Below, one piece after another: positions 6,831 through 21,061 of a stretch of 64,000 nt of DNA. The notes under the pieces were generated by a model that worked only from the letters and a program-made list of their open reading frames with translations, did no database searches and was not told the origin of the DNA. The position numbers were made by a program, and so were the translations under genes. How positions within the stretch are numbered: position 1 is the first letter of the stretch; the number at the start of each line of letters is the position of its first letter. This DNA comes from Pseudomonadota bacterium (GTDB taxonomy: Bacteria > Pseudomonadota > Alphaproteobacteria > Rhodobacterales > Rhodobacteraceae), in assembly GCA_038526085.1 (NCBI GenBank), contig JBCBHE010000021.1, forward strand, positions 3,705 to 67,704, written 5' to 3'.

Positions 6831-7243
6831 CTCAGTTTCGCCTTCAAGGGTCCACCAATCACGATACCTACCAGCATGGCCGGTACAAACGCCAAGGTGC
6901 CTGGCGCCATCAGAGGTAGCGCGGTCCAGGCCGGACCAGGACAGAAGCCACCGATGCCCCAACCGATCCCAAAGAGGGCCGCGCCTGTCAGGAGCGGGCG
7001 GTCGATTGCCGTGCTCTTGGGGATGTCGAAGTCTGCCATGACAAGGGGTGCTGGCCGCTTCCAGACGAGGCGGTAGCCGATGTAGGCTGTTACACTTGCA
7101 CCGCCCATCACGAAGGCGAGTGAGGGATCCCAGTTGCCGGCCACGTCAAGGAAGTTCAAGACCTTTGCAGGGTCCGACATGCCTGAAATGACCAATCCGA
7201 CGCCAAAGATGAGACCGCAAAGAAAGCCAAGAATGATCCGCAT
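6827..7243 (-). CDS. YeeE/YedE family sulfur transport membrane protein
   Basis: SGMSDPAKVLNFLD, WDPSLAFVMG, GFCPGP. Confidence 0.88.
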   Translation of the reverse strand: MRIILGFLCGLIFGVGLVISGMSDPAKVLNFLDVAGNWDPSLAFVMGGASVTAYIGYRLVWKRPAPLVMADFDIPKSTAIDRPLLTGAALFGIGWGIGGFCPGPAWTALPLMAPGTLAFVPAMLVGIVIGGPLKAKLS

Positions 7244-7246
7244 GGT

Positions 7247-7702
7247 TTAAACTCCGATCACGTGACGCAGGACGTAGACGGTGATCCCCGCCGTTGCCAT
7301 GAAGGTGAGCACCGCGGCGAGAGACCGGGGCGAAAGCCGTGCGAGGCCACAGACGCCATGACCCGATGTACAACCTGAGCCCATTGCGGTGCCGACACCA
7401 ACGATGAGGCCGGCCGCGACCATGCCAAGCAAATTGCTTGGGACGGTTTGCGTGACGGTCTGGCCGATGCCTTGCATCAGCAAGGGTGCAGCGATGAGCC
7501 CCAGTACGAAGGCCACCCGCCACGCCCAATCTTGGGTCGTTGTCTGCCCTGATGTCAGTCGGCTGAGCGCGCCACTGGTGATCCCGACAATGCCGGCGAT
7601 CCGACCAAAGGCGAGCATGACCAACACGGCGGATAGTCCGATCAAAACACCGCCAAACAAAGACGCCCATGGCGTGAATTCAGTCTCTACTATTGGGCCC
7701 AT
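7247..7702 (-). CDS. YeeE/YedE family sulfur transport membrane protein
   Basis: GRIAGIVGI, GSGCTSGHGVCGLARLSPRSL; start moved to ATG 7702 (RBS GAAGG). Confidence 0.88.
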   Translation of the reverse strand: MGPIVETEFTPWASLFGGVLIGLSAVLVMLAFGRIAGIVGITSGALSRLTSGQTTTQDWAWRVAFVLGLIAAPLLMQGIGQTVTQTVPSNLLGMVAAGLIVGVGTAMGSGCTSGHGVCGLARLSPRSLAAVLTFMATAGITVYVLRHVIGV

Positions 7703-7873
7703 AGGGTGAGTGCCTTCTGACGTTATTTGTGACCGTGCGGTATAAGGGCTCGATTGCGAAACCGACACATGAAAATCATAACGTTGCACCGAATTTGTCA
7801 TAGTTGTGATCTAGCCTTGCCACCACGCGGCCTCCTATGGTTCGGTCGCATAAAAATAAAGGCAGAACAGGCA

Positions 7874-10800
7874 GTGTTCGATCGGATCTATCCCCAACGC
7901 CCACTGTGGGCGTTTAAGGGCGTTGCGCGTCGCGGAACGTCTGTGGCGGTTATGATCCTTTTCGGCTGGACCGAAATTGCTCGCGCGCAGGACCTGTCAT
8001 GGAACCTCACCAGTAACGGCAATTGGAACACGACGGATCCGAACTGGATCGAAGATGGGGTGGTTGCGCCGCTTGCGTTTACGAACGGCGCAAGCGTCAC
8101 GTTTGAAGAGGTGGGCGGCTTTACGGTGACCATCGACGATGGAAGCGTACAAGTCTCAGACATCACCTTTGTCGAAGACGGATATGCGATTGCGCAATCG
8201 AGCGGTGGCGCGCCCTTTGCCATTGAGCCGACAGGGGGTGCTTTTGCCCTGACGCTCAATGCGGGTGTCACAGCGACGGTTACCGCCCCGTTCACTGGTA
8301 CAGACCCAATCACGGTTGTGGGCACGCCGACATCAACTTTGGCCCTGTCCGGTGACAGCAGCGGCGCGACGGGCGAGTTGGATATCACCGGTGGAACGGT
8401 CACGCTCAGTGGTGATTATGGCGGTGCCGTCACTAACAGTGGTGAAAGCCTGACAAACACCGCAACGATTAGCGGTCTTGTCACCAATAACGCTGATCTG
8501 ACGGCGGCGGGGACCTTCAGCAGTGGGATTACCAATGCGGCTGGAACGGTGACAGTGACCGCGGACAGTACTGGCAACATAACGAACACTGGGGGTGATC
8601 TGACAGTCAACCTTGGGCAAACGTTGACTGGCGACGTCACGAATGCCGACGCGGCGCCCGACACGGTAGTCGACGGCAGCGTTGTGGGTAACCTGACGGT
8701 GTTCGACGGGACCGTCGACAACAATGGCACTGTGACCGGCAACACCGATGTGTCTGGTGGTGCGCTGACAAACGATGGGACGCTTGATGGGGCGTTGATT
8801 GTGACCGGCGGCACGGTGGACAACACCGCAAGCGTCGTCGGCAATGTCACCGTGAATGGCGGGACGGTCACGAACTCCGGGTCTTTGGGTGGCACGGTTG
8901 TAATTGCCCAGACCGGCGTTCCGGCAGCTGCTTTGAACGATACGGGTGGCACGATCGCCGGCTTGGTGACCAATACGGATGGCACGATCACGGCTGATGG
9001 CACCACGTTCACGTCTGGGCTGCAGCAGGATGGCGGTACCACGACGGCAACAGGCACGGATTTTGGAACCGGCGCCACGGTTGCAGGCGGTGCGCTCGCG
9101 ATCGACGGGGCCATGGCAGCGACGTCGACTGGCGATGTGGCTTTGACCGGCGGCGATCTGACGGTTGCGGCCGGGCAAACGTTGACCGGGGCTGTCACAA
9201 GTTCCGATGCTGCGTCTGAGACCGTGATCGATGGTACGGTGACGGGCGACCTGACAGTGAGCGACGGGACCGTCGACAACAATGGCACGGTCACTGGCAA
9301 TGCAGATGTGTCGGGCGGAGCGCTGACAAACGATGGGACGCTTGACGGTGCCCTTACCCAGTTGGATGGTGATGTGACGAACACCGGTGATGTGACTGGC
9401 AACACGATAATAAATAGCGGGACGTTTACCAATTCTGGCGGCTTGGGCGGGACACTGGTCTTGGATCAAACCGGGGCTGTTCCCGTCGAACTGAATGATA
9501 CTGGCGGCGTGATTGCTGGGCTGACGACAAATGTCGATGGCAGTATCACGGCTGACGGCACCACGTTTGCGGGCGGGTTGCGGCAGGTTGACGGTAACAC
9601 GGAGGTGACTGGCACCGATTTCGGCACCGGGTTGAACGTGGACGGCGGGAGCGTGACGATTTTCGGCTCCGCGCCAGCCACCAGTTCGGGCGATGCCACG
9701 CTGTCTGGCGGCGACTTGGTTGTTGGTGTGGACCAGACGTTTGCGGGTGACATTGTGATCGATGACCTCGATTCAGGCCTGCGCAATATTGGCACGATTG
9801 TTGGGGACGTCACTGTCAACGACGGTGTTTTCAATCATGAAGCGGTTGTGGTCGGTAATGTGATCGTCAACGATAGAAACTTCTTCAGCGAAGGCGGGCG
9901 TGTGACAGGGACCGTCACGCAGTCGGGTGGGATCAGCCGGTTCCGGCAAAGCCAAGTAGATGGTGGGTTGATCATTTCAGATGGCACGTCCAGCATTCGC
10001 GAGGACAGCACGCTGGACATCACAAACACAGGCGGTCGTGTTGATGTAGCGAGCGGGCAAACCCTGACAGGGAACATTGTTCAAACCGACGGACGGACGG
10101 ATTTGAGTGGTGTTGTCGATGGGACGTTGACGGCGAGCGGCGGTCGCGTCGACCACGGAGTCGGCGCAGACATTACGGGGCTAACGACGCTGCAAGGGGG
10201 CGTCGAGTTTAACGCGGACGGTGGCACATTTACCGGTGGATTGCGCGTTGAGGATGCCGATTTGACTTTGACCGGACCACTGGTCGGTGATCTTGAAAAC
10301 GCTGGCGAGGCGCTGTCCTTTGGCGATGGGGTCATTTTGGATGGCGACGTCTTGAATAGTGCTGGCACGTTGGATTTGGGCGCTTTGGTGACTGGCACGC
10401 TGACGGTCGATGACGGCGCTGTCACAACGACGCCCACTGCAACGATCCAAGGTGCGACGACCGTCAATGGTGGGACGTTGACTGCCGATGGCAGTACCTT
10501 CGACGGGGGGATCACCGTTGCTGGCGGCGATGTTGCGATCACAGAAGTGGGCACCATCAATGGCATGGCGATCAGTGACGGGACACTTGTGGTGGAAGGG
10601 ACCACGCCGTTGACCACCGACTTAGATGTGTCTGGTGGTGATACGACCCTGACGAGCGATATGGTGGGATCAGTCACGCAAAGTGGTGGGACGGTCACCC
10701 GATCCGGACAGTTGGATGGGACCGTCGATTTGAGCGATGGGACGTTCACAAATGCCGATGGTTCCATTTCGGGCGCCACGACGGTTACTGGTGGCACCCT

Positions 10801-13036
10801 GGTTGCAGATGGCGGCGACTTTGCTGAAACGGTTACAAGCCAGGGCGGCACGGTTCGGATTACAGGAGAGTCCACGGGCAGTATTGCGAACGTGTCTGGT
10901 GAGGTGATCGCCGAAACCGGTGGGACGCTTGATGGATCTATTACCAATCAAGGGACCGTAACTGGTGCTGGTGGCAGCATTACGGGTGATTTGACAAACA
11001 CCGGTACAGTCGATGTGACCGGCGGCGATTTGACTGTGGGTGACCTGACCTCGACAGGGAGTGTGACCGTTTCGAACGGTCATGCGTTGGGTTTTGACAC
11101 TGCAGAGATTGGCGGCGGAACCCTGGCGGTCACGAACGGGACGTTAGATGGCGACGTGACAGTTGCCGCTGGTGTCGATTTAACGGCGTCTAACATGACG
11201 GTCACCGGTGATTTCGCGACAATGACGGATCTGGTCAGCAATGGTGCGCTGAGCATCGGAGGTGACTTTGTAATGGACGACAGCGATCTGACCATTGCAA
11301 CCGGTCGTGCAGAGATCGGCGGCGATGTGACCTTTGCAGATGATGTGTTTGTGACGCTTGTGGATGGCACCGGATTGTCTGGGGCGACGATTACTAACGC
11401 GGGCCAGATGGCCGCCACCGGGACTGTCGCTTTCGCGGGCGACTTCACCAATTCTGGCACTCTGACAGCAACCGGCGCGCAAAGCTTCGATGGCCCGTTT
11501 ACGAACACTGGTACGTTGACCGCCACGGGCGATTTGTCCTTCAGTGGCCTTTTCACAAATAGTGGCGTCTTTGGTGCGGAAGGGTCGCTCACCTTTGGGG
11601 GCGGGCTGCAAAACACCAGCGGCATCACGACCGTGAACAACGACCCAACCGACACGATCACAATTGGGGGTGCCGGACTGAGCGGGGGTGGCACCCTGCA
11701 GTTTGATGTCGATTTATCGAACGAAGTGGGTGTGGCTGATCAGGTCACAATGGCACCAGGTGCCTTCATTACAGGCGATGTGACGCTGAACTTTAATGTC
11801 CTTGGCAGTGGCGCGCAGCAGCCCGTCGACCTTGTTTTAATTGACGTCGCTGCTGGTGACCCCGGCAACTTTAACATTGCCGCTGATGAGATTATCGACC
11901 CATCCGGCATTCTGACCTACAGCGTCACCCGCAATGCGGCAGGCGACGTTGTGATTGAGGATGCGCTGACGCCCGCGATTGCGGGTTTGGCCGGAAACAT
12001 CGTGCTGACCCAATCGCTGATTGGTTCGGTAGTGAACCGTCCGTCGAGCCCGTTTGTGACCAGTCTTGCCTATGAGGATGATAACCCATGCGGCTCAGGC
12101 ATGTGGGCGCGGACGATTGGCGGTGGTGCGACATCTGCAGGTGAGGTGTCGGAGTTCGGTTTGGAAGGCGGTGCATTTGATGGGCGCATCTCGGCCACCT
12201 TTGCTGGCGTCCAGTTGGGTGCCGACTTTGCGTGCTTTAACGGCGTCTACAACGGCTGGGACTTGGCCGTTGGCTCGATCGGTGGTGTGAACATCGGGCA
12301 GACCAGCCAGCCTGTGTTTGCGATTGATCTTGAGCAAGCGGACAACCTGTCGGATCGGCAGACCAGCACGACAACCGTTGACTTTACGCAGTTCTATAGC
12401 GGAGTGTATGCGACCGCTGTGCGTGGGCCTTGGGCCGTCGATTTGCAGTATCGGTTTGAGATGACCGACTTTACCGCGACCAATGAGGGTGCGGATGGTT
12501 TGCCGGGGCTTGGCCTTGATGACACCGCCTTCGATAGTTTTGCAACGACGCTGAGTGGGGCAGCGAGTTACGTCTATAATGTGCCTGACACGAACATTGC
12601 CCTCGTCCCGACCGCTGGCTTCGCCTTTACTCAGGTCAGTACTGACGAGATCAACTTTGAAAGTCGCGGCATCGTGCGCATTGACGACTTTGATAGCCGG
12701 ATTGGGTTCATTGGTGGTACGCTTGCGATATCCAACTTCGGCGACGATGGCGTGTCGGCGTACCAAGAATTTGTGTCGGCCACCATTTACAATGATTTTG
12801 CTGATGGTCCGACATCTACCTTTTCACCCGTTGACGAAAGCGGCGATCGCCGGTTGCGGACGGAGAACTTAGGGCTCTACAGCGAGCTGAGCGTTGGTGT
12901 GAACTACGTCAAGGTGCTGCAACCCGGAGAATTTGGCGCCGTCAAACAGCTGTCCGCCAATGCACGCGCTGATCTGAGGATCAGTGAAAGACTCAAAAGC
13001 TGGGGCATCACTGCCCAAGCCCGATATCAGTTCTAA
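7874..13036 (+). CDS. Giant autotransporter-like outer-membrane protein with Gly/Thr/Asp-rich beta-helical passenger
   Basis: Signal-peptide-like N-terminus ending IARA-QD; repetitive GTV/TNTG passenger; C-terminal ~300-aa barrel-like region starting near GMWARTIGGG and ending RYQF. Start uncertain (ORF is open from 7754; GTG 7874 chosen). Confidence 0.8.
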   Translation: MFDRIYPQRPLWAFKGVARRGTSVAVMILFGWTEIARAQDLSWNLTSNGNWNTTDPNWIEDGVVAPLAFTNGASVTFEEVGGFTVTIDDGSVQVSDITFVEDGYAIAQSSGGAPFAIEPTGGAFALTLNAGVTATVTAPFTGTDPITVVGTPTSTLALSGDSSGATGELDITGGTVTLSGDYGGAVTNSGESLTNTATISGLVTNNADLTAAGTFSSGITNAAGTVTVTADSTGNITNTGGDLTVNLGQTLTGDVTNADAAPDTVVDGSVVGNLTVFDGTVDNNGTVTGNTDVSGGALTNDGTLDGALIVTGGTVDNTASVVGNVTVNGGTVTNSGSLGGTVVIAQTGVPAAALNDTGGTIAGLVTNTDGTITADGTTFTSGLQQDGGTTTATGTDFGTGATVAGGALAIDGAMAATSTGDVALTGGDLTVAAGQTLTGAVTSSDAASETVIDGTVTGDLTVSDGTVDNNGTVTGNADVSGGALTNDGTLDGALTQLDGDVTNTGDVTGNTIINSGTFTNSGGLGGTLVLDQTGAVPVELNDTGGVIAGLTTNVDGSITADGTTFAGGLRQVDGNTEVTGTDFGTGLNVDGGSVTIFGSAPATSSGDATLSGGDLVVGVDQTFAGDIVIDDLDSGLRNIGTIVGDVTVNDGVFNHEAVVVGNVIVNDRNFFSEGGRVTGTVTQSGGISRFRQSQVDGGLIISDGTSSIREDSTLDITNTGGRVDVASGQTLTGNIVQTDGRTDLSGVVDGTLTASGGRVDHGVGADITGLTTLQGGVEFNADGGTFTGGLRVEDADLTLTGPLVGDLENAGEALSFGDGVILDGDVLNSAGTLDLGALVTGTLTVDDGAVTTTPTATIQGATTVNGGTLTADGSTFDGGITVAGGDVAITEVGTINGMAISDGTLVVEGTTPLTTDLDVSGGDTTLTSDMVGSVTQSGGTVTRSGQLDGTVDLSDGTFTNADGSISGATTVTGGTLVADGGDFAETVTSQGGTVRITGESTGSIANVSGEVIAETGGTLDGSITNQGTVTGAGGSITGDLTNTGTVDVTGGDLTVGDLTSTGSVTVSNGHALGFDTAEIGGGTLAVTNGTLDGDVTVAAGVDLTASNMTVTGDFATMTDLVSNGALSIGGDFVMDDSDLTIATGRAEIGGDVTFADDVFVTLVDGTGLSGATITNAGQMAATGTVAFAGDFTNSGTLTATGAQSFDGPFTNTGTLTATGDLSFSGLFTNSGVFGAEGSLTFGGGLQNTSGITTVNNDPTDTITIGGAGLSGGGTLQFDVDLSNEVGVADQVTMAPGAFITGDVTLNFNVLGSGAQQPVDLVLIDVAAGDPGNFNIAADEIIDPSGILTYSVTRNAAGDVVIEDALTPAIAGLAGNIVLTQSLIGSVVNRPSSPFVTSLAYEDDNPCGSGMWARTIGGGATSAGEVSEFGLEGGAFDGRISATFAGVQLGADFACFNGVYNGWDLAVGSIGGVNIGQTSQPVFAIDLEQADNLSDRQTSTTTVDFTQFYSGVYATAVRGPWAVDLQYRFEMTDFTATNEGADGLPGLGLDDTAFDSFATTLSGAASYVYNVPDTNIALVPTAGFAFTQVSTDEINFESRGIVRIDDFDSRIGFIGGTLAISNFGDDGVSAYQEFVSATIYNDFADGPTSTFSPVDESGDRRLRTENLGLYSELSVGVNYVKVLQPGEFGAVKQLSANARADLRISERLKSWGITAQARYQF
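8588..9800 (+). repeat. 558-bp (186-aa) tandem intragenic repeat: two clear copies plus a diverged third
   Basis: GACGGGACCGTCGACAACAATGGCAC at 8705 and 9263; GGDL-x-V unit starts at 8588, 9146 and 9704 (period 558). Confidence 0.85.
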
Positions 13037-13044
13037 GGATTAAA

Positions 13045-13794
13045 ATGACCCCTGCAGACCCCTTTATGAAGGTTGATTTCGCGTTCGAAAGCTTCGGCGC
13101 GACTGATATTGGGCTCCGCCGTAAATACAACGAAGACCGCTTTGCCATGTTGCCGGAGCATGGTGTTTGGCTTGTCGCCGATGGGATGGGGGGGCACGCT
13201 GGCGGCGACTATGCGAGCCAAGCCGTGATCGATGACTTACCAAGTTTTGAAGGCGCTTTGACCCTTGGAGATTTGGAAAACCGGTTTCACGATGGGTTGG
13301 CTGAGGCGCATGTCCGAATGCTGCGGGTCGCGAAGGCGCTGAGCATGGATGCGATCGCCACGACCGTGGTTGGGTTGCTGATTTATCAGGATGAATTTGC
13401 ATCAATTTGGTCGGGCGACAGCCGCCTTTACCAGATGCGCGACGGGTCCCTGAAGCCGGTCACGCGCGACCATTCCGAAGCACGAGAGTTGGTGGATGCG
13501 GGTGTCTTGACCCCGGAGCAGGCGCGCACCTGGCATCGCCGCAATATCGTGACACGCGCCCTTGGGGTTTATGACCATCTAAGCGCAGAGACTGCCTATG
13601 GGGAGGTTGCGGCTGGCGATACCTTCTTGCTGTGTACCGATGGACTGACCGAACATGTCACGGATCAAGAACTTGAAGCGATCCTGAAGGAGGCCGACAG
13701 CGCGCAGGCGGCCGTTGAGAAGATGATCAGCAAGACGCTCGACCGGGGTGCGGTCGACAACGTCACGGCGATTGTCGTGCGGGTGCAGTCATGA
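13045..13794 (+). CDS. PP2C/PPM-family Ser/Thr protein phosphatase
   Basis: TDIGLRRKYNED, VADGMGGH, GDSRLY, LLCTDGLT, DNVT. Confidence 0.95.
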   Translation: MTPADPFMKVDFAFESFGATDIGLRRKYNEDRFAMLPEHGVWLVADGMGGHAGGDYASQAVIDDLPSFEGALTLGDLENRFHDGLAEAHVRMLRVAKALSMDAIATTVVGLLIYQDEFASIWSGDSRLYQMRDGSLKPVTRDHSEARELVDAGVLTPEQARTWHRRNIVTRALGVYDHLSAETAYGEVAAGDTFLLCTDGLTEHVTDQELEAILKEADSAQAAVEKMISKTLDRGAVDNVTAIVVRVQS

Positions 13795-15569
13795 CACAGG
13801 TTGACCCACCTATGGGGGCTGGTGCTTTGGAAAGCACGGTGCCGCTTGGGACGGTCATCAACAACAACTACAAGATCATGGAGCTACTGAGCATTGGTGG
13901 CATGGGTGAGGTGTTCTTGGGCGAGAACACGTTCACGGGCGACCCTGTGGCGATTAAGATCGTGCTGCGCGAGCTAGCCCAAGATGAGAACATTACCCAG
14001 TTATTCCGAAAAGAAGCTCGCGTGCTTTGCGGTTTGTCGGACCCAGCGGTCGTTCGGTACTTCAACTTTGTTCGTGATGAAAACCTCGACCGGTATTGCC
14101 TGATCATGGAGTTTGTCGACGGCATGGTGCTGTCCGATCATGTGCTCAAGGTCGCGCCACTGGATGTTGAAACGGCGTTGGTTTTGCTGCGCCGCTTGGC
14201 GGTTGGGCTGGCCCAGGTCCACGCGATGGGTGTTGTGCACCGCGACCTGTCGCCCGACAACGTAATCCTCCGCGACAATGCGATTGATGAGGCGGTGCTC
14301 ATCGATTTTGGCATCGCAAAATCGACGGAGCTGTCGGACAAGACGCTGCACGGGCAGTTGACTGGCAAGCTAAAGTTTATTTCACCCGAACAGCTGGGCC
14401 ACCATGATAGCGTGATCAGCCGGAAGACGGATATCTACGGTCTTGCCTTGCTGATCGCCTATGCGGTGCAGGGCAAGCCGTTGCCGATGGGTGAATCGGT
14501 GGTGGAAGCGGTGAACGCCCGGATGGTGATCCCTGATCTACGTGAATTCGACCCGCGTTTACGCGCCATTCTGGCCCATATGTTGGAACCCGATCCTGCG
14601 GATCGACCCGACAGTATGGATGCCGTCGTCGAATTGGTTGATCATCCGGGCCGGCTGCCTGAGAAGTACCGCCCTTTAGGCCCAAAGGTGGACCCGAGTG
14701 CCGCCTCAGATGCGGCAATGGATGCGGTGTTTCAGCCGCCCAAGCTGATCCCCGGCAAGCTTGCCGTCGATGCTCCGCTAGAGCCAGCAGTGCCTGCCGC
14801 AAGTGGTGGCGCTACGCTGCGATGGGTTGGGGTGCTGGCCTTGGTTGGTGCGCTTGGCTGGTTTGTGGCGGATCAGCAGGGATGGCTTGGAACGCCGGAG
14901 GTGGCTGATACGGAAGAGACCGTTGACGTGGCGCCTGCAACCGAAGGCGCTGTCACCCGCGCCAGCTATCTGGCGACCTATGCAGAAGGCTGCGCCTTTG
15001 CGGTGCGGATTGCAGCGGGGCCGGACGCAGGGACGGTTGCGGGTTATGCAGGTGATGTCGCAGCCTTTGATGACCTGTCCGCAGATTACGATGCGACGTT
15101 CAGCGCCGCCCCGACGGTGAATACGTTTGCGTTGTCAGGGGCCCAATGCCCTGTTGCGACGCTTGGCAAGGCCTTGCAATCCCGCGATGGGGGTGCGCCG
15201 TTGATGACGCTTGATAGTGACACCATGCAAAGTGATGGCACGATTGTTGGGCGCCTGTCTGACCGGCGTGGGCGGCCCGTGTGGCTGGCACTCGTGACGG
15301 CGGCAGGGGGCGTTTATAACCTGACGGATCGGCTGGTCGAACAGCCAGACGGCAGTGCGACTTTCAATTTTGGCCTAACTGCCGATGGCACGGACGCGCC
15401 GCAGGGGCAGGTGCTTATCGCCTTGGCGAGTGATGCACCCCTGATCGCCGCTGCGGCAGCGGCCGAAGGGGCATCAGCGCAGAGTCTTCTCCCATTGATC
15501 GAAGCGGAGATTGCTGGACGTGATGGACGCGTGGGTATGGCTTTGGGGTACTTTACGCTTGAGCCTTAA
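13791..15569 (+). CDS. Membrane-anchored Hanks-type Ser/Thr kinase with periplasmic C-terminal domain
   Basis: GGMGEVF, VAIK, HRDLSPDN, DFG, SPEQ, DIYGL; TM WVGVLALVGALGWFVA; ~200-aa C-terminal domain with two Cys. Confidence 0.93.
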   Translation: MTQVDPPMGAGALESTVPLGTVINNNYKIMELLSIGGMGEVFLGENTFTGDPVAIKIVLRELAQDENITQLFRKEARVLCGLSDPAVVRYFNFVRDENLDRYCLIMEFVDGMVLSDHVLKVAPLDVETALVLLRRLAVGLAQVHAMGVVHRDLSPDNVILRDNAIDEAVLIDFGIAKSTELSDKTLHGQLTGKLKFISPEQLGHHDSVISRKTDIYGLALLIAYAVQGKPLPMGESVVEAVNARMVIPDLREFDPRLRAILAHMLEPDPADRPDSMDAVVELVDHPGRLPEKYRPLGPKVDPSAASDAAMDAVFQPPKLIPGKLAVDAPLEPAVPAASGGATLRWVGVLALVGALGWFVADQQGWLGTPEVADTEETVDVAPATEGAVTRASYLATYAEGCAFAVRIAAGPDAGTVAGYAGDVAAFDDLSADYDATFSAAPTVNTFALSGAQCPVATLGKALQSRDGGAPLMTLDSDTMQSDGTIVGRLSDRRGRPVWLALVTAAGGVYNLTDRLVEQPDGSATFNFGLTADGTDAPQGQVLIALASDAPLIAAAAAAEGASAQSLLPLIEAEIAGRDGRVGMALGYFTLEP

Positions 15570-15588
15570 GGCGCCGCGCATCGTCCGA

Positions 15589-16908
15589 CTAGCGTACGTC
15601 GAATGGGGCAACTGTGATTGTCGCCCGGCCTTCAATCTCAGAGGTGAGCGCGCCGAAGTAGTTTTCGGCCAATTGACCGTTTTGGCGCGTCGAGGAAGTG
15701 GGCCGTGTTGCCGTCCCGATTGCCAGCAAGAGTTGACGGGTATCGCGTGCCGCGCCAGCACGTCGTAGCGGAGCTGCGAAGCGCGCTGTGTTCACGCCAA
15801 CCGTCAGGTAGTTGCCAAGGTCTTGGGCGACGCCGTTGTCATCAACCAGGACAAGGGTAATGTTGCGCCCGCCCGTGCCCGACAGACGCCCTGTCAGCTC
15901 TGTTCCGCTTTCAATGCGCGGTGCATCGAGGCCAAGCGCCATCGGTCCGGTTGGGTAGCCCGCTGTTGCCCGGATGTAATCGAGCGCCGCGCATTGGCGT
16001 GGATCGACAAGGATCGTGCTTTGCGGGGGGCGTGGCGTGAGACCAGCGAGGATTTCGTCAGTGTAAGGTCCGACGGCGGCTTCATTTGCCGCATAGATTT
16101 GCAAGCTGACTGTGCCGTTCTGCTGCAGTGGTATCGCAATCATACAAGTGGCGCCAACTGAGGCGCGAATACGCGCGATCAAGTCTGCTGCCAAAGGATC
16201 GGGGATGACGGCGTCTGGCACGGCAGGGCGTGGGGCAGGGGCTGGCGTACCAAGGGTTTCCGCTTGCGCGATCGCTTGGGTCACTGGTGACTGCGACTGG
16301 GTTGTTTGCACAACGCGGGCCTGTGAGACCGGTTGTGCCACGGTTGTGGATGGCGCGGCAGGGGCGGTAGTTACCGTCTCTGCGAGCTGCGATGCAGGCT
16401 GTGTCGGCGCAGACGCAACGGGTGCCGCGGTTGGATTGACTGGGCGCAGGGGGCTGATGGTTTCTGGTCCGATAGCTGGTGCGGTTGATGCGGTTTCCGA
16501 CTCTGTTGCGGTGTCTGCAGGCGCGATCGCATCTAGCGCATCGGACGGCGAAACGGGGGCAAGGATTTCGCGTTTGGTGATGTCTTGCAAGCCGTCTTCT
16601 ACGGCGATGGCTTCGGTTTCCTGACCATCCGTTTGCGCATCGACGACGAGGGAGGCCCCAACAGGCTGGAGCGTGTCGGCGCCATCGCCTCCGGTGTCAC
16701 CGGAGCCGATTTCGGCACTAAAGACGTTTCGTGTATCGATGGAGAGGGAGGTGATCTGGACCTCTGGCGTCTCCCGTTCTTGTAAGTCAAAAACAGCACC
16801 GACATCGACCACAGCCGTCAGCACGAAATAAGCGAAACCGACGTGGACAAGAGCGGATAGCCCAAAGGCCTCCGCCCAATGCAGCGGCTTTTCGTTTTGG
16901 ACGATCAT
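15589..16908 (-). CDS. TonB/TolA-like single-pass protein with non-TonB C-terminal domain
   Basis: N-terminal TM with S-x3-H (LSALVHVG); Ala/Pro/Thr/Gln-rich linker; follows exbB-exbD-exbD; C-domain resembles the kinase C-domain. Confidence 0.7.
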   Translation of the reverse strand: MIVQNEKPLHWAEAFGLSALVHVGFAYFVLTAVVDVGAVFDLQERETPEVQITSLSIDTRNVFSAEIGSGDTGGDGADTLQPVGASLVVDAQTDGQETEAIAVEDGLQDITKREILAPVSPSDALDAIAPADTATESETASTAPAIGPETISPLRPVNPTAAPVASAPTQPASQLAETVTTAPAAPSTTVAQPVSQARVVQTTQSQSPVTQAIAQAETLGTPAPAPRPAVPDAVIPDPLAADLIARIRASVGATCMIAIPLQQNGTVSLQIYAANEAAVGPYTDEILAGLTPRPPQSTILVDPRQCAALDYIRATAGYPTGPMALGLDAPRIESGTELTGRLSGTGGRNITLVLVDDNGVAQDLGNYLTVGVNTARFAAPLRRAGAARDTRQLLLAIGTATRPTSSTRQNGQLAENYFGALTSEIEGRATITVAPFDVR

Positions 16909-17309
16909 TGCACCTGGTCCCGCGTTCGCAATGTGACGAGGCGGAGTTCAATGTTGGAGAGGGCAGGGGTGTTCATCACCTCTAGCAGTCCCGATGCTGG
17001 CGCATCGCGCCCGATCAGGACATGCAGCACAATCGGCTTTGGCAAGTCCGCCAGCGCCACATCCATGAGTTCAGGTGCAACAGGCATCCCGTCGAGTTGC
17101 CAATGATCCCCATCCACGATCAGGATCGGGGTTGGGAGGGCATCGATTGGAAGTTCTTGTGTCTCTGCCAAGTCCACATCGCCAGTTGCGGGGTTCAGCA
17201 ATTGGCCGGTCGCCAAGAAGAACAAGATCAGCAACAGCACAATGTTCACGATGGCGAGGGAGACATCGAGCTTGATGGGCTCGGGGCGTTTGGGGAGACT
17301 GTCGATCAT
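16905..17309 (-). CDS. exbD: ExbD/TolR family protein (Asn at the usual TM Asp position)
   Basis: SLAIVNIVLLLILFFLATG transmembrane segment; periplasmic domain with GRDAP; ATGA overlap with neighbours. Confidence 0.75.
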   Translation of the reverse strand: MIDSLPKRPEPIKLDVSLAIVNIVLLLILFFLATGQLLNPATGDVDLAETQELPIDALPTPILIVDGDHWQLDGMPVAPELMDVALADLPKPIVLHVLIGRDAPASGLLEVMNTPALSNIELRLVTLRTRDQVQ

Positions 17310-17746
17310 ACTGTGCCCCCTGCGATTTGTACGTTTGTAATACCCGCTGTCGTTAGCGCTTCAACCACGCGCGCCAAATCTTGCACCACTGCGCCATCGC
17401 GTAAGATTAACAGGACCGTGGTGTCTTGGGTCGCCATGGCGGCGGTGAGATCCGGCAGCGCTTCAAACCCGAAGGCTTGACCGCTGACAGTGACGCCGTC
17501 GGCGGATACGTTCCAAATGGCGACCTCTGCAAAGGAGGTTGCTGTGCTTTCTGCGGCAGTGCCGGCCGTGTTTGCAAAGTCGCCCGATGCCCCGCTTCGG
17601 ATTGTCATGAGCGCGTAGGGTGCCAGACTGCTCGACAACATAAAGAAGATCAGCAATTGGAACATCGCGTCGGCCAAGGGCGTCAGCACAAATTTGTACC
17701 GGCGTGGCCGTTGGGCGAGCGTGAATTTGGGGGCGACCGTTGTCAT
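17306..17746 (-). CDS. exbD: ExbD/TolR family protein
   Basis: LTPLADAMFQLLIFFMLSS with conserved TM Asp. Confidence 0.82.
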   Translation of the reverse strand: MTTVAPKFTLAQRPRRYKFVLTPLADAMFQLLIFFMLSSSLAPYALMTIRSGASGDFANTAGTAAESTATSFAEVAIWNVSADGVTVSGQAFGFEALPDLTAAMATQDTTVLLILRDGAVVQDLARVVEALTTAGITNVQIAGGTV

Positions 17747-17755
17747 GGCGCAGGT

Positions 17756-18397
17756 TTATCCCGCTGCCTCACTGTCGACGCGCCCGTGGATTGCGGCAGA
17801 GATCAGCGTTTCCATCGCCTGACGCTCTCCCTCGATCCGGCCTTCGAGCCAGGTCGCGGCGAAGTAGGTGATCAGTGCGATGGCCAGGCCCGCGGCCGTG
17901 GTGGTCAGCGCTGTCCAGATACCGCTGGCCAGCAATGTTGGGTCCACGGTGCCATCGGCAGCGGCGAGGGTCGAAAAGGCATCGATCATGCCAATCACAG
18001 TGCCGAGGAGGCCGAGCATCGGGGCACCTTGTACGATAACCTCGAGCACACGCATGCGGCGCGACAGCCGCGAGAGTTCCGTCATCGCCGTTTGACGGCC
18101 AAGTTCTGCCGCGAAGTCAGGCATACCTGGTTTGGCACGCAGGCCGGAGAAGACGGATTGTAACACGCGTCCTAACACAAAGCGCTGTTCACCCGCATGG
18201 CGCACCGCGTCTTCGGCTTGGCCGCCAAGCCAAGTGCCCAAGATCGCTTCTGCCGCGTTGAATTGGCCGACGCCAAGGCGATTGAACTGGAAGGTCTTGT
18301 AGAAAGTGACGGTGACCGCCAGCACAGACATGATTGCGAGCGCCGCGAAAACAATCAACGACGGCAAGTTCAAAACGGACAAATCAGGAGCGTTCAT
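17756..18397 (-). CDS. exbB: MotA/TolQ/ExbB proton channel protein
   Basis: GAPMLGLLGTVIGMIDAF, GIWTALTTTAAGLAIAL. Confidence 0.92.
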   Translation of the reverse strand: MNAPDLSVLNLPSLIVFAALAIMSVLAVTVTFYKTFQFNRLGVGQFNAAEAILGTWLGGQAEDAVRHAGEQRFVLGRVLQSVFSGLRAKPGMPDFAAELGRQTAMTELSRLSRRMRVLEVIVQGAPMLGLLGTVIGMIDAFSTLAAADGTVDPTLLASGIWTALTTTAAGLAIALITYFAATWLEGRIEGERQAMETLISAAIHGRVDSEAAG

Positions 18398-18409
18398 ATG
18401 GGGACGCCT

Positions 18410-18853
18410 TTACAAACCAAACTGAATCGCAGCACGGGATGATGTTGCGAGGGAGGACATGCAGAAATCACCGGTCGTGGCGGTATCTGTTGGCGTACAC
18501 GCCGCCACATCGTTAACGATGATGCGCGAGGTGTCAGCACAGGTCTGACCGGCGATGTCGAATTGAACCACGCGGGTCTTGCCTTCGGGCAGCGCGCCAA
18601 AGGCCAAAACCAGGATACGGCTTACGATACCATTGCCGTCAAACACGGCGACTTCGTAAGACGCTTGGTCGAGCCCGGTGCCGGTGCGATTGGTTGCGAC
18701 ATAGGTCAAACGGCAGTCGCTGGTCGCGGTATCCGAAGCTGAGTTGAGTTCCAAAAAGAACTCCTCAGCCTCATTTTGGGCAAATACCGGTGTTATCGAT
18801 GCTGCTGAGACGGCAAATGCGGTCAGCAAAGCGGGAATCAGGCGGTAGCTCAT
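18410..18853 (-). CDS. Secreted four-Cys hypothetical protein, first gene of the motor operon
   Basis: Signal peptide ending PVFA-QN; LELN...CR...FGALPEGKTRVVQFD...C...NDVAAC. As I recall, this type sits ahead of exbBD in alphaproteobacteria (not verified). Confidence 0.75.
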   Translation of the reverse strand: MSYRLIPALLTAFAVSAASITPVFAQNEAEEFFLELNSASDTATSDCRLTYVATNRTGTGLDQASYEVAVFDGNGIVSRILVLAFGALPEGKTRVVQFDIAGQTCADTSRIIVNDVAACTPTDTATTGDFCMSSLATSSRAAIQFGL

Positions 18854-19023
18854 CGGAACCTCAACAGTAGGTAACTCAAAGGGTTGCAGCGAATTGGCCG
18901 CATTGTTCGCAGGCTGGCAACAAAGCTTGGCAGAATTGTGGCCCAGGCAAGGTTTTGGAAGGCAATCCGCAGGGTCGGATCGCCTGTAATTTGAGGGCGC
19001 CGGAATTGGCGCAGAGTTGGGTG

Positions 19024-20463
19024 ATGATGGCGCGACGCTGGATCACAACGGGTCTATGTGCATCCGCACTTGCGGTGTCGTTCGCGACTGTCGCGCATGC
19101 TGAGGCCAAACGCGCATTGGTGGTAGTGGATCGACCGGATGCAGCGGATCAGGCCATCGCGATCTCAGAGACTTTGTTAGGGCTCGGCTTTGACGTTGCG
19201 CGCCTGGAATCCCCCACCCCGCAGGCCCTGGACGACGCGCTACAGACACTGACAGTAGAAGGTGGACCAACGGCAATTTACTTTGCCGGGGATCTTGGCG
19301 ATCTGACGGATTTCACGGGCGCTGGTGGTGAGACCCCGAGATTTATTTTCGTCGATGCATGCCAAGAGGTTGCTGTTGATGCGCTTCCGTCGAATGTCTT
19401 TCTGGTCAGCCCAGGTGCTGATTGTGCGGGTGATGTTGCGGCTGTTGTGCAGGAGTGGTTGACCGTTCCCGGCCTGAGCACCGATCAATGGGACCTGGGC
19501 GAGACGGTTCAGATTTCTTCAACACTCACCGCCCCATACGTCTTTCGCGAAACCACCAGCGACGTGCGGTTGACGGCCGAAGACTACGCCTTGCTTGATA
19601 GTCTGTCGCCCGAGGCGCGCGCCCAAATGATCCGGTTGTGGCGGAGCGCCGGCATTGCCGTGGACGTTGCGGACGCAGCTGCGTTGGCTCCCGTTGCCCC
19701 TGTTCAAGTGGCCCGTGATACGGTGCAGGTGATTGCGCCCGTATCTGCGGCGGCCGCATCGACGGTTGTCCGCCCAATTGCCCCGGTTCCGGTTTCCGGT
19801 GGTGTCACACAACCCGCTCGGGCGGGAAGCACGAGCCGCACCCTGAGCCCGACGATTAATTTACCAACCCCAGGCGCGGCTGGTCTGCCTGCGCCGTCGA
19901 TCCTTGTCGGCTTTGTCACGGATAGCTTGCCAGAGGCGCCAGAAGTGCCCGATGAGCCGGTCGCAGGTGCTGCTTTCGGTACCGATGATGTTGCGGCGCG
20001 CGAAGCGCTGCGGGAGCAAGACGCTGATCTGTTTGCGGGTTTGGTTTCATCCGGTGCGTTCGACCCGACTGACGATGTCATTCGCGCCTTGCAAGTCGAG
20101 TTGGCCCGGATCAACTGCTACACGTCGGGGATTGATGGCGCTTGGGGCCCCGGATCACAGCGGGCCTTGGCCGCATTCTATGACCTGAGCGGGACGAACC
20201 CGTCCGACGCGACACCTGATCTTGAGGATTTCCGCACCGTGATCGCAGCAAATGGCGTTCGCTGTCCGGATCCGCCGCCGCCGCCGACTCGCCAAGCAGC
20301 GACATCGTCGCAATCGACAGCGCAACCGGCTCGCGCGGCAGCACCGGCTGCATCACAGCCACGCCGGGCGACACCTGCACCGGCACCCGCGCCAGCCCCT
20401 GCTGCGCCGTCCGCGCCGCGCCGGAGCATCAACCAGACTGGAGGGTCTGGTATCTTCCGCTAG
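19024..20463 (+). CDS. Secreted protein: degenerate caspase (peptidase C14)-like domain, Pro/Ala linker, peptidoglycan-binding domain
   Basis: Signal peptide ending VAHA-EAK; KRALVV, LGFDV, IYFAGD, FVDACQ; ALQVELARINCYTSGIDGAWGPGSQRAL (PG_binding_1-like). Confidence 0.75.
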   Translation: MMARRWITTGLCASALAVSFATVAHAEAKRALVVVDRPDAADQAIAISETLLGLGFDVARLESPTPQALDDALQTLTVEGGPTAIYFAGDLGDLTDFTGAGGETPRFIFVDACQEVAVDALPSNVFLVSPGADCAGDVAAVVQEWLTVPGLSTDQWDLGETVQISSTLTAPYVFRETTSDVRLTAEDYALLDSLSPEARAQMIRLWRSAGIAVDVADAAALAPVAPVQVARDTVQVIAPVSAAAASTVVRPIAPVPVSGGVTQPARAGSTSRTLSPTINLPTPGAAGLPAPSILVGFVTDSLPEAPEVPDEPVAGAAFGTDDVAAREALREQDADLFAGLVSSGAFDPTDDVIRALQVELARINCYTSGIDGAWGPGSQRALAAFYDLSGTNPSDATPDLEDFRTVIAANGVRCPDPPPPPTRQAATSSQSTAQPARAAAPAASQPRRATPAPAPAPAPAAPSAPRRSINQTGGSGIFR

Positions 20464-21061
20464 GACCGGTCCTGTTGGTGAAAATGAAACCGCCTGTCTC
20501 TGTGCACAGGGAGGGAGGAAGAGCGTGCAGCAGAGCCAGGCGGCCAATTTGATTGTCCGGGAAGGACATGGAGAGTTCGGGCGGGTGCGCCCGTAATTTG
20601 ACTGTGGCATTGGGTTGATCATCGCGCAAATCTGACACCACCAAATGTCCGACCTTTTTGCCGCGGTGCAGAATGCGCTCAGCGTAGCGGCAAAAATTTA
20701 GGCGAATACTGAGACTTGCACGAAAAATAGGCGATTCCTGTGCGAATTGAACATTCTTGGCATTGATCAGGTCACGAAGGCCAACACTGTGCTGAAATAA
20801 ATCTGGGTGTTTTACCGCAGCTTCAGCACGATGTTGACGCCCGTTGTCTGCTCTGGCATTTTTGGTCTGCAGAAGAAGGAGACTCTGACAATGGACACGT
20901 CGATCCGCTGATCTCACCGCGCGCCGCCCGAGCTGGGCCGCACTGCGCATGCCTTTCTTTGTGGAGCACCCTGACAATGGACAAGCATCTTTAGGCCCTG
21001 ACCGGGCTTGAGCCGCCGTGCATTTGCGCGGCCAAATAACCCCTTGTTCGAGAGGCACACC

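Follow-up and report, generated by a model that had tools for sequence, protein, structure and literature searches.

Two described kinds of envelope system come closest to the locus considered here. The TonB-ExbB-ExbD and TolA-TolQ-TolR systems combine an ExbB-family channel and ExbD-family partners, encoded in a translationally coupled operon, with an arm (TonB or TolA) that is anchored by a single N-terminal transmembrane (TM) helix with an S-x3-H motif and continues into a long, Pro-rich periplasmic linker. The PpkA-PppA pairs of type VI secretion systems (T6SSs), found for example in the H1-T6SS of Pseudomonas aeruginosa (with TagQRST) and in Agrobacterium tumefaciens (PpkA-TssL-Fha, with TagF), consist of a membrane-bound Hanks-type kinase with an extracytoplasmic domain and an adjoining PP2C phosphatase. 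The PpkA of P. aeruginosa carries a periplasmic domain of the vWA type and has TagQRST upstream; its activation, by TagQRST and by dimerization, takes place through the periplasmic side. Features of both kinds of system are found together in a stretch of 64,000 nucleotides (contig JBCBHE010000021.1, positions 3,705 to 67,704) from the draft genome of a member of the Rhodobacteraceae (GCA_038526085.1, G000; 4.3 Mb, 91% complete, 123 contigs), which is called the window in the following. Here, a Hanks-type Ser/Thr kinase and its PP2C neighbor lie tail to tail with an ExbB/ExbD/TonB-like motor operon, and the kinase and the TonB-like protein end in regions of ~200 residues that are almost certainly true paralogs.

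The likeness to the Ton and Tol systems covers the channel, its partners, the coupled operon, and the anchor and linker of the arm, but it ends at the tip of the arm, where a novel two-lobed domain without a Pfam or NCBIfam match takes the place of TonB_C (PF03544) or TolA-III. Also unlike in Ton and Tol, the locus in the window has two ExbD paralogs, a linked Hanks kinase and PP2C phosphatase and, in relatives, T6SS genes, while no TonB-dependent receptor, TolB, or Pal is encoded in the locus. With regard to PpkA, the window provides a Hanks domain, one TM helix, an extracytoplasmic C-terminal domain, and an adjacent PP2C gene; a surrounding T6SS cluster is missing, but orthologous loci of relatives do have that context (TagF-TssM-TssL-TssK). 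Unlike in P. aeruginosa PpkA, the sensor would be the novel domain and the upstream candidate the ExbBD/TonB-like motor, which sits where the upstream input of a PpkA would be expected. The regulatory roles of the threonine phosphorylation pathway and of TagF in T6SSs are among the topics summarized in PMC5995506. The closest T6SS loci are the Roseobacter T6SS1 clusters of Leisingera, Ruegeria, and Tateyamaria described in PMC9515649, as the same type of cluster holds the relatives of the module (Leisingera sp. ANG-M7 and JC1 are among the loci found here, as L038 and L049). In that study only the known tss and tag genes are colored and the rest is given as "other"; there is no mention of ExbB, ExbD, or TonB, the T6SS1 clusters are without tssJ, and the study states that no function is known for any roseobacter T6SS. 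Similar to the arm described here are also the predicted periplasmic force transducers (TolQR-like motors with vWA arms; Mol Biol Evol 2025, PMC12204202), which have arms of TolA/TonB topology with non-canonical heads and motors of the ExbB/TolQ type. The head in the window is, however, a different one and is common to a kinase, and PMC12204202 mentions no T6SS, kinases, or Rhodobacter. In a 2026 review of T6SS accessory factors, ExbB, ExbD, TonB, TolQ, and MotA all go unmentioned, and our literature search turned up no account of the shared domain or of ExbBD/TonB-like genes acting as T6SS accessories.

The two proteins and their parts are located as follows.

13791..15569, + strand: Hanks-type Ser/Thr kinase, 592 aa, PpkA-like (Pfam Pkinase, 2.2e-33)
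13869-14624, + strand: kinase domain (residues 27-278, Pkinase)
14811-14867, + strand: predicted TM helix of the kinase (residues ~341-359, hydrophobic peak)
14952..15566, + strand: shared periplasmic domain, kinase copy (residues 388-592; hhalign, AlphaFold2 model)
15592..16206, - strand: shared periplasmic domain, TonB-like copy (residues 235-439; hhalign, AlphaFold2 model)
15589..16908, - strand: TonB-like protein, 439 aa, with TM anchor, linker, and shared C-terminal domain

A reading of the sequence alone, without database searches (the sequence-only reading), had proposed that kinase and TonB-like protein share a paralogous periplasmic domain of ~200 residues with two cysteines, encoded at 14958-16190 (kinase residues 390-592 and TonB-like residues 240-439), and this proposal is confirmed. 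The hand alignment on which it was based pairs 64-residue segments of the kinase (residues 452-515, nt 15144-15335) and of the TonB-like protein (residues 305-368, nt 15805-15996); a recount gives the same 19/64 ungapped identities, a number that none of 100,000 shuffles reached. BLASTP of the full proteins returned one significant local alignment (E=3e-4, 25% identity over 159 aa). When homologs of both proteins were gathered (91 for the TonB-like protein and 62 for the kinase) and the profiles of the two C-terminal families were aligned with hhalign, they matched with a Prob of 99.2% and E=2.2e-19 over 188 columns with both cysteines aligned, so that the profile alignment on which the proposal had been made to depend is highly significant. 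Furthermore, in a six-frame hidden Markov model (HMM) search of the whole genome, each family profile matched its own protein and, apart from that, only the other paralog (E=2.3e-10 and 6e-16); no further copy of the domain was found in the genome by either HMM even at E<=10.

The two cysteines are a constant feature of the domain. As had been noted, their spacing is C-x51-C in the kinase (C401, nt 14991-14993, and C453, nt 15147-15149) and C-x50-C in the TonB-like protein (C255, nt 16144-16146, and C306, nt 15991-15993), and they are the only extracytoplasmic cysteines of the former and the only cysteines of the latter. The pair is invariant in 90 TonB-like sequences (alignment A1, columns C41 and C92, together with Q91) and in 62 kinase sequences (alignment A2, C34 and C86), and a joint alignment of the domain from 59 sequences (A3) has three invariant columns, namely C21, C72, and G125. 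Because the pair is both invariant and periplasmic, a disulfide between the two cysteines is plausible. The extracytoplasmic position of kinase residues ~360-592 follows from the single TM helix at residues ~341-359. In the TonB-like protein, the anchor is located at residues ~16-34 (nt 16807-16863) and has its S-x3-H within LSALVH at residues 17-22, in or next to the hydrophobic peak; its W, S, and H are near-invariant in 90 homologs, and a linker rich in Pro, Ala, Thr, and Gln follows.

The predicted folds of the two copies are alike as well. AlphaFold2 with the family alignments produced confident models for both (pLDDT 92.9 for the TonB-like and 92.7 for the kinase copy; pTM 0.85 and 0.86) with the same order of elements: a short helix; a β-hairpin, helix, strand, and helix; a seven-stranded sandwich; and a helix with a final strand. 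When the three-state DSSP assignments of the copies are compared via the sequence alignment, 85% of the 198 aligned positions agree. According to the models, the domain would be composed of an α/β lobe with the invariant cysteine pair (the first cysteine where the first strand begins, the second where the second helix begins) and an Ig-like β-sandwich closed by the C-terminal helix and strand. The sequence-only reading had described the second half as Ig- or DUF4384-like, of which the first part stood and the second did not. In a Foldseek search against the PDB, the best matches of both models were Ig-like or β-sandwich structures (SoxYZ chains, carbohydrate-binding module, macroglobulin, CEACAM, and titin) with E ~1e-3, probabilities up to 1.0, and TM-scores of ~0.5 on the target and ~0.3 on the query; these matches cover the second lobe alone and would thus indicate a generic fold rather than a family. 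DUF4384 (PF14326) was matched neither by the window proteins at E<=0.1 nor by 90 members of the TonB-like family at E<=1. No PDB structure matched the whole two-lobed domain in Foldseek, and a PDB sequence search with the joint profile gave nothing below E=0.09. Neither the window proteins nor the 90 TonB-like family members have a Pfam match to the shared domain, and NCBIfam gave no match either. The first lobe (β-β-α-β) was also considered as a diverged TonB_C, but hhalign gave a Prob of 0.2%, which is a weak negative given a small TonB_C profile from relatives and a few misoriented loci. The shared domain can be described as a well-defined new family, with two lobes and an invariant cysteine pair, that is absent from Pfam.

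Around the two paralogs, the locus is built from two convergent units according to the open reading frame (ORF) list: giant ORF, PP2C, and kinase on the + strand and small protein, ExbB, ExbD, ExbD, and TonB-like protein on the - strand. The remaining genes are the following.

7754..13036, + strand: giant ORF, 1760 aa as listed (true start uncertain), repeat-rich, 8-nt gap to PP2C
13045..13794, + strand: PP2C Ser/Thr phosphatase, PppA-like (Pfam PP2C_2, 8e-10; NCBIfam Stp1/IreP PP2C, 4.7e-57)
16905..17309, - strand: ExbD-like 2, 134 aa (Pfam ExbD at E=0.003, below cut-off)
17306..17746, - strand: ExbD-like 1, 146 aa (Pfam ExbD, 6.4e-11)
17756..18397, - strand: ExbB/TolQ/MotA-family proton channel, 213 aa (Pfam MotA_ExbB, 1.5e-26)
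18410..18853, - strand: small secreted protein, 147 aa, signal peptide, 4 Cys (no Pfam match)
18955..20463, + strand: caspase-like protein, 502 aa as listed (start uncertain), divergent from the motor operon, conserved member of the module

The kinase and TonB-like genes were correctly recognized as lying tail to tail; the gap between them is 19 nt (15570-15588). The motor genes are translationally coupled through 4-nt overlaps (exbD/exbD/tonB-like, including that of the TonB-like gene with exbD2), and a 4-nt overlap also joins the start of the kinase gene to the PP2C gene. Pfam and NCBIfam both lack a match for the TonB-like protein, for the small protein, and for the last third of the kinase; a promoter and terminator scan of 7000-20600 gave nothing informative.

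In relatives, this arrangement is embedded in T6SS clusters. The gene order in Cognatiyoonia koreensis, Celeribacter, and a Rhodobacteraceae isolate (L001, L002, L005) is TssG-ClpV-...-M23 peptidase-caspase-like-DUF1036-small protein-ExbB-ExbD-ExbD-TonB-like, followed in convergent orientation by kinase-PP2C-TagF-TssM-TssL(OmpA)-TssK. The proteins in the window are clearly related to those in such clusters: its kinase is 51% identical to the T6SS-cluster kinase of C. koreensis, its ExbB 65% to that of L001, and ExbD-like 2 61% to the second ExbD of the L001 module, and its PP2C is orthologous to the PP2C adjoining TagF-TssM. A scan of species representatives found 127 loci, of which 80 were kept, and loci were tabulated by tblastn and HMMs. 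Counting only the 72 loci that reach at least 4 kb past the TonB-like gene, the kinase paralog is present in 52, convergent in all 52, and separated by a median gap of 19 nt; TssM accompanies 51 of these 52 pairs, the single exception being L003, a close relative of the window. Among 86 tabulated loci, the ExbB/ExbD linkage is found in 81-82 and the small secreted protein precedes exbB in 78. The two-ExbD arrangement is likewise kept in 82/86.

A census of the family with one genome from each of 401 genera detected the domain in 40 genera, with two copies in 29, one in 11, and never more than two. TssM is present in 38 of these 40 genera vs 102/401 overall. None of the 400 genomes outside the family in the class-level set carries the domain, and therefore no outgroup is available to root the duplication. 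A search of representative proteins returned 1,370 clusters at E<=1e-3 and revealed a third architecture (P0154, P0155, P0156), in which three to five tandem copies of the domain, with the same GGxC/QC motifs, are joined by Pro/Ala-rich linkers; P0154, from a JGI metagenome contig, lies in the order TssM-TagF-PP2C-kinase-[5x domain]-kinase. As the convergent pair lies in the T6SS clusters of relatives, the kinase is PpkA-like, a PpkA-type T6SS kinase by descent with the PP2C as its PppA, and the ExbBD/TonB-like motor is an accessory module of Rhodobacteraceae T6SS clusters. This link of the pair to T6SSs, the PpkA- and PppA-like identities, and the oddity of a genome that has the pair without a T6SS had escaped the sequence-only reading.

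No TssM, TssK, or TagF was found in this 91%-complete draft, the search for TssL gave only OmpA-domain matches, and neither TssC nor an FHA domain was detected anywhere in the assembly. Where the relatives have TagF and TssM, the window has the giant ORF. The same operon of giant ORF, PP2C, and short kinase is present in the diverged T6SS-less relatives L003 (13886-18961), L093 (1-3354), and L094 (4356-9242). Within the genus, the pair occurs in 8 of 41 species, six of which have TssM about 5 kb away, while the two without TssM are the window genome and G835; one other genus (G039) is also T6SS-less though domain-positive. It is thus very probable that a T6SS-derived module has been orphaned in this genome. 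The window kinase is therefore an ortholog of T6SS kinases by descent and not a T6SS kinase by its present context. Because T6SS, TagF, and an FHA protein are all absent, the canonical substrates Fha and TssL are missing here, and the product of the giant ORF is an obvious candidate for the output of the kinase.

A maximum-likelihood tree separates the TonB-like from the kinase copies as reciprocally monophyletic clades (100/100) that branch internally in matching ways; the window and L003 nest inside T6SS-bearing lineages in both clades, and the tandem-repeat proteins form a third clade next to the kinase clade. Such a topology indicates that a single old duplication gave rise to the two copies, that they have since been inherited together, and that T6SS loss is the derived condition. 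All ORFs of the module are intact. Compared with L003, dN/dS amounts to 0.02-0.07 for all seven genes (with a saturated synonymous rate for PP2C) and, by region, to 0.019 for the TonB-like head, 0.064 for the kinase sensor, and 0.16 for the TonB-like linker, all of which are approximate values as dS is ~1-2 and near saturation. The orphan module thus appears to be under strong purifying selection rather than decaying, from which it follows that it should still work and should act on something other than a T6SS.

Taken as a whole, paralogous heads in a T6SS-derived module that is kept without its T6SS and works as a motor-kinase unit are, in our judgment, the probable explanation of the locus, though by no means a settled one. 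The kinase copy of the domain would serve as an extracytoplasmic sensor and the TonB-like copy as the partner-binding head of a force-transducing arm. Since the two heads are homologous, they might pair with each other (as a pseudo-dimer) or engage the same kind of envelope partner, and movement of the arm driven by the proton-motive force, or its contact with the outer layers, would alter sensing by the kinase and in this way set kinase/PP2C signaling. Functional coupling of motor and kinase as such is a real but tentative possibility. The most specific version, in which the arm passes a mechanical or occupancy signal to the kinase via head pairing and the unit has in this clade lost its connection to the T6SS and acquired a different output, possibly the giant surface protein of the same operon, is speculative and, in all its parts, improbable. 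If it were true, the module would be a portable envelope-sensing cassette with a motor-to-kinase input of a kind undescribed for Ton/Tol or for T6SS phosphorylation pathways.

Several observations weigh against this reading. The TonB-like module is found without the kinase paralog in 20/72 loci, including those of Leisingera, Paracoccus, and Tritonibacter, and the kinase paralog occurs without ExbBD and TonB-like genes in L090 and L091. L092 (G118:C13:31000-49267, about 7000-13200) has a PP2C, a domain-bearing kinase, a small protein, and a caspase-like protein with no ExbB, ExbD, or TonB-like gene. Because each paralog occurs without the other in some genomes, the coupling is not obligatory. 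Moreover, the strongly conserved motifs differ between the TonB-like and kinase clades, which is as compatible with diverged partners as with a heterotypic interface. The absence of the T6SS is based on synteny and several negative searches of a draft that is 91% complete, and the near-saturation of dS noted above limits the argument from selection.

The alternative that survives best is that the two copies are true paralogs with independent functions, the motor and its arm performing a separate envelope job and the kinase sensing an unrelated cue, so that their adjacency would reflect common descent and co-regulation in one island. In T6SS-bearing relatives, the job of the motor could be the gating of the outer membrane or peptidoglycan, or anchoring, in clusters without TssJ; the lack of tssJ in the roseobacter T6SS1 clusters (PMC9515649) leaves room for such a structural or energizing role. 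Apart from the unpaired occurrences, the clade-specific motifs and the long branch that separates the TonB-like and kinase clades also speak for independence. On the other hand, 52/52 paired loci, from many genera, keep the two genes convergent and a few nucleotides apart, as they still are after loss of the T6SS in this clade, and in the census of 401 genera no genome exceeded two copies, with 29/40 having exactly the pair. We therefore consider independent roles rather unlikely, though a serious competitor to the coupled unit. It was also observed that the tail-to-tail adjacency is not kept in every T6SS-less member: in L006 and L093 (from the same metagenome-assembled genome) and in G835 (C46, C32) the kinase and motor operons are on different contigs, and the L093 kinase is followed by unrelated genes.

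Far less credible is the idea that the module is a decaying remnant of a lost T6SS island, in which the likeness of the two heads no longer serves a function. The absence of the T6SS core, TagF, and FHA from the genome would be expected under this idea, as would the caspase-like neighbor without a detectable Peptidase_C14 signature. The ORFs are, however, uninterrupted, the catalytic motifs of the kinase (VAIK, HRDLSPDN, DFG, and SPE) are all intact, the comparison with a relative at dS~1 gives dN/dS values of 0.02-0.07, and the same T6SS-less arrangement has been kept in several diverged genomes, so that decay is very improbable. Lastly, a chance or compositional likeness of two Ala/Gly-rich periplasmic regions, for which only the pairwise identity of just 21-25% between the copies could be put forward, can be dismissed in view of the hhalign result (E=2e-19), the reciprocal unique HMM matches across the genome, the shuffles, the two cysteines and the glycine that are invariant in both families, and the matching order of predicted secondary structure.

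The module deserves attention for several reasons. Envelope triggering of T6SS firing is understood only for the Pseudomonas TagQRST-PpkA route, and a different and widespread input module would here replace that route, namely a dedicated Ton-like motor, the arm of which bears a second copy of the domain that serves the kinase as sensor. Its reach (40 of the 401 sampled genera, 127 species-level loci, and about 1,370 protein clusters) is considerable. If the two heads do talk to each other, membrane energization or contact with the outer membrane would be linked to Ser/Thr phosphorylation, which would be a new signaling principle and would give a first functional handle on the roseobacter T6SSs (PMC9515649). 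The T6SS-less clade can be seen as a natural dissection: it shows the motor-kinase cassette to be under selection by itself, and it offers a simpler background for finding the substrates of the kinase and the partners of the heads.

Some further observations concern the neighboring genes. The giant ORF is 1,628-1,760 aa long where it is complete (the L093 copy is cut by the end of its contig) and has no match in Pfam, either with the whole protein or with its last 450 aa, and none in PDB sequence searches; its earlier label as autotransporter-like thus received no support. An ORF upstream of the PP2C gene in G039 (L087) was considered as the same giant protein, but it showed no similarity and no Pfam match. 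At least three further Hanks-kinase loci, as well as PP2C loci, exist in the window genome (contigs C7, C11, C19, and C39) despite the lack of an FHA protein. The caspase-like protein of the window is 42% identical to the L005 protein that carries Peptidase_C14 but has no significant Pfam match itself, and its catalytic domain may be degenerate in the T6SS-less clade. As for the small secreted protein, the gene content of L092 indicates that it may relate to the kinase side as well. Contig C80 ends within a second exbB, and TonB_C was not found anywhere in the assembly. On that contig (L086:5238-6184), which lies outside the window, a paralog of the small protein (32% identical) precedes the second exbB, and the two adjoin a TonB-dependent receptor and a siderophore-interacting major facilitator superfamily (MFS) fusion; in this lineage, the small secreted protein thus seems to accompany exbB generally.

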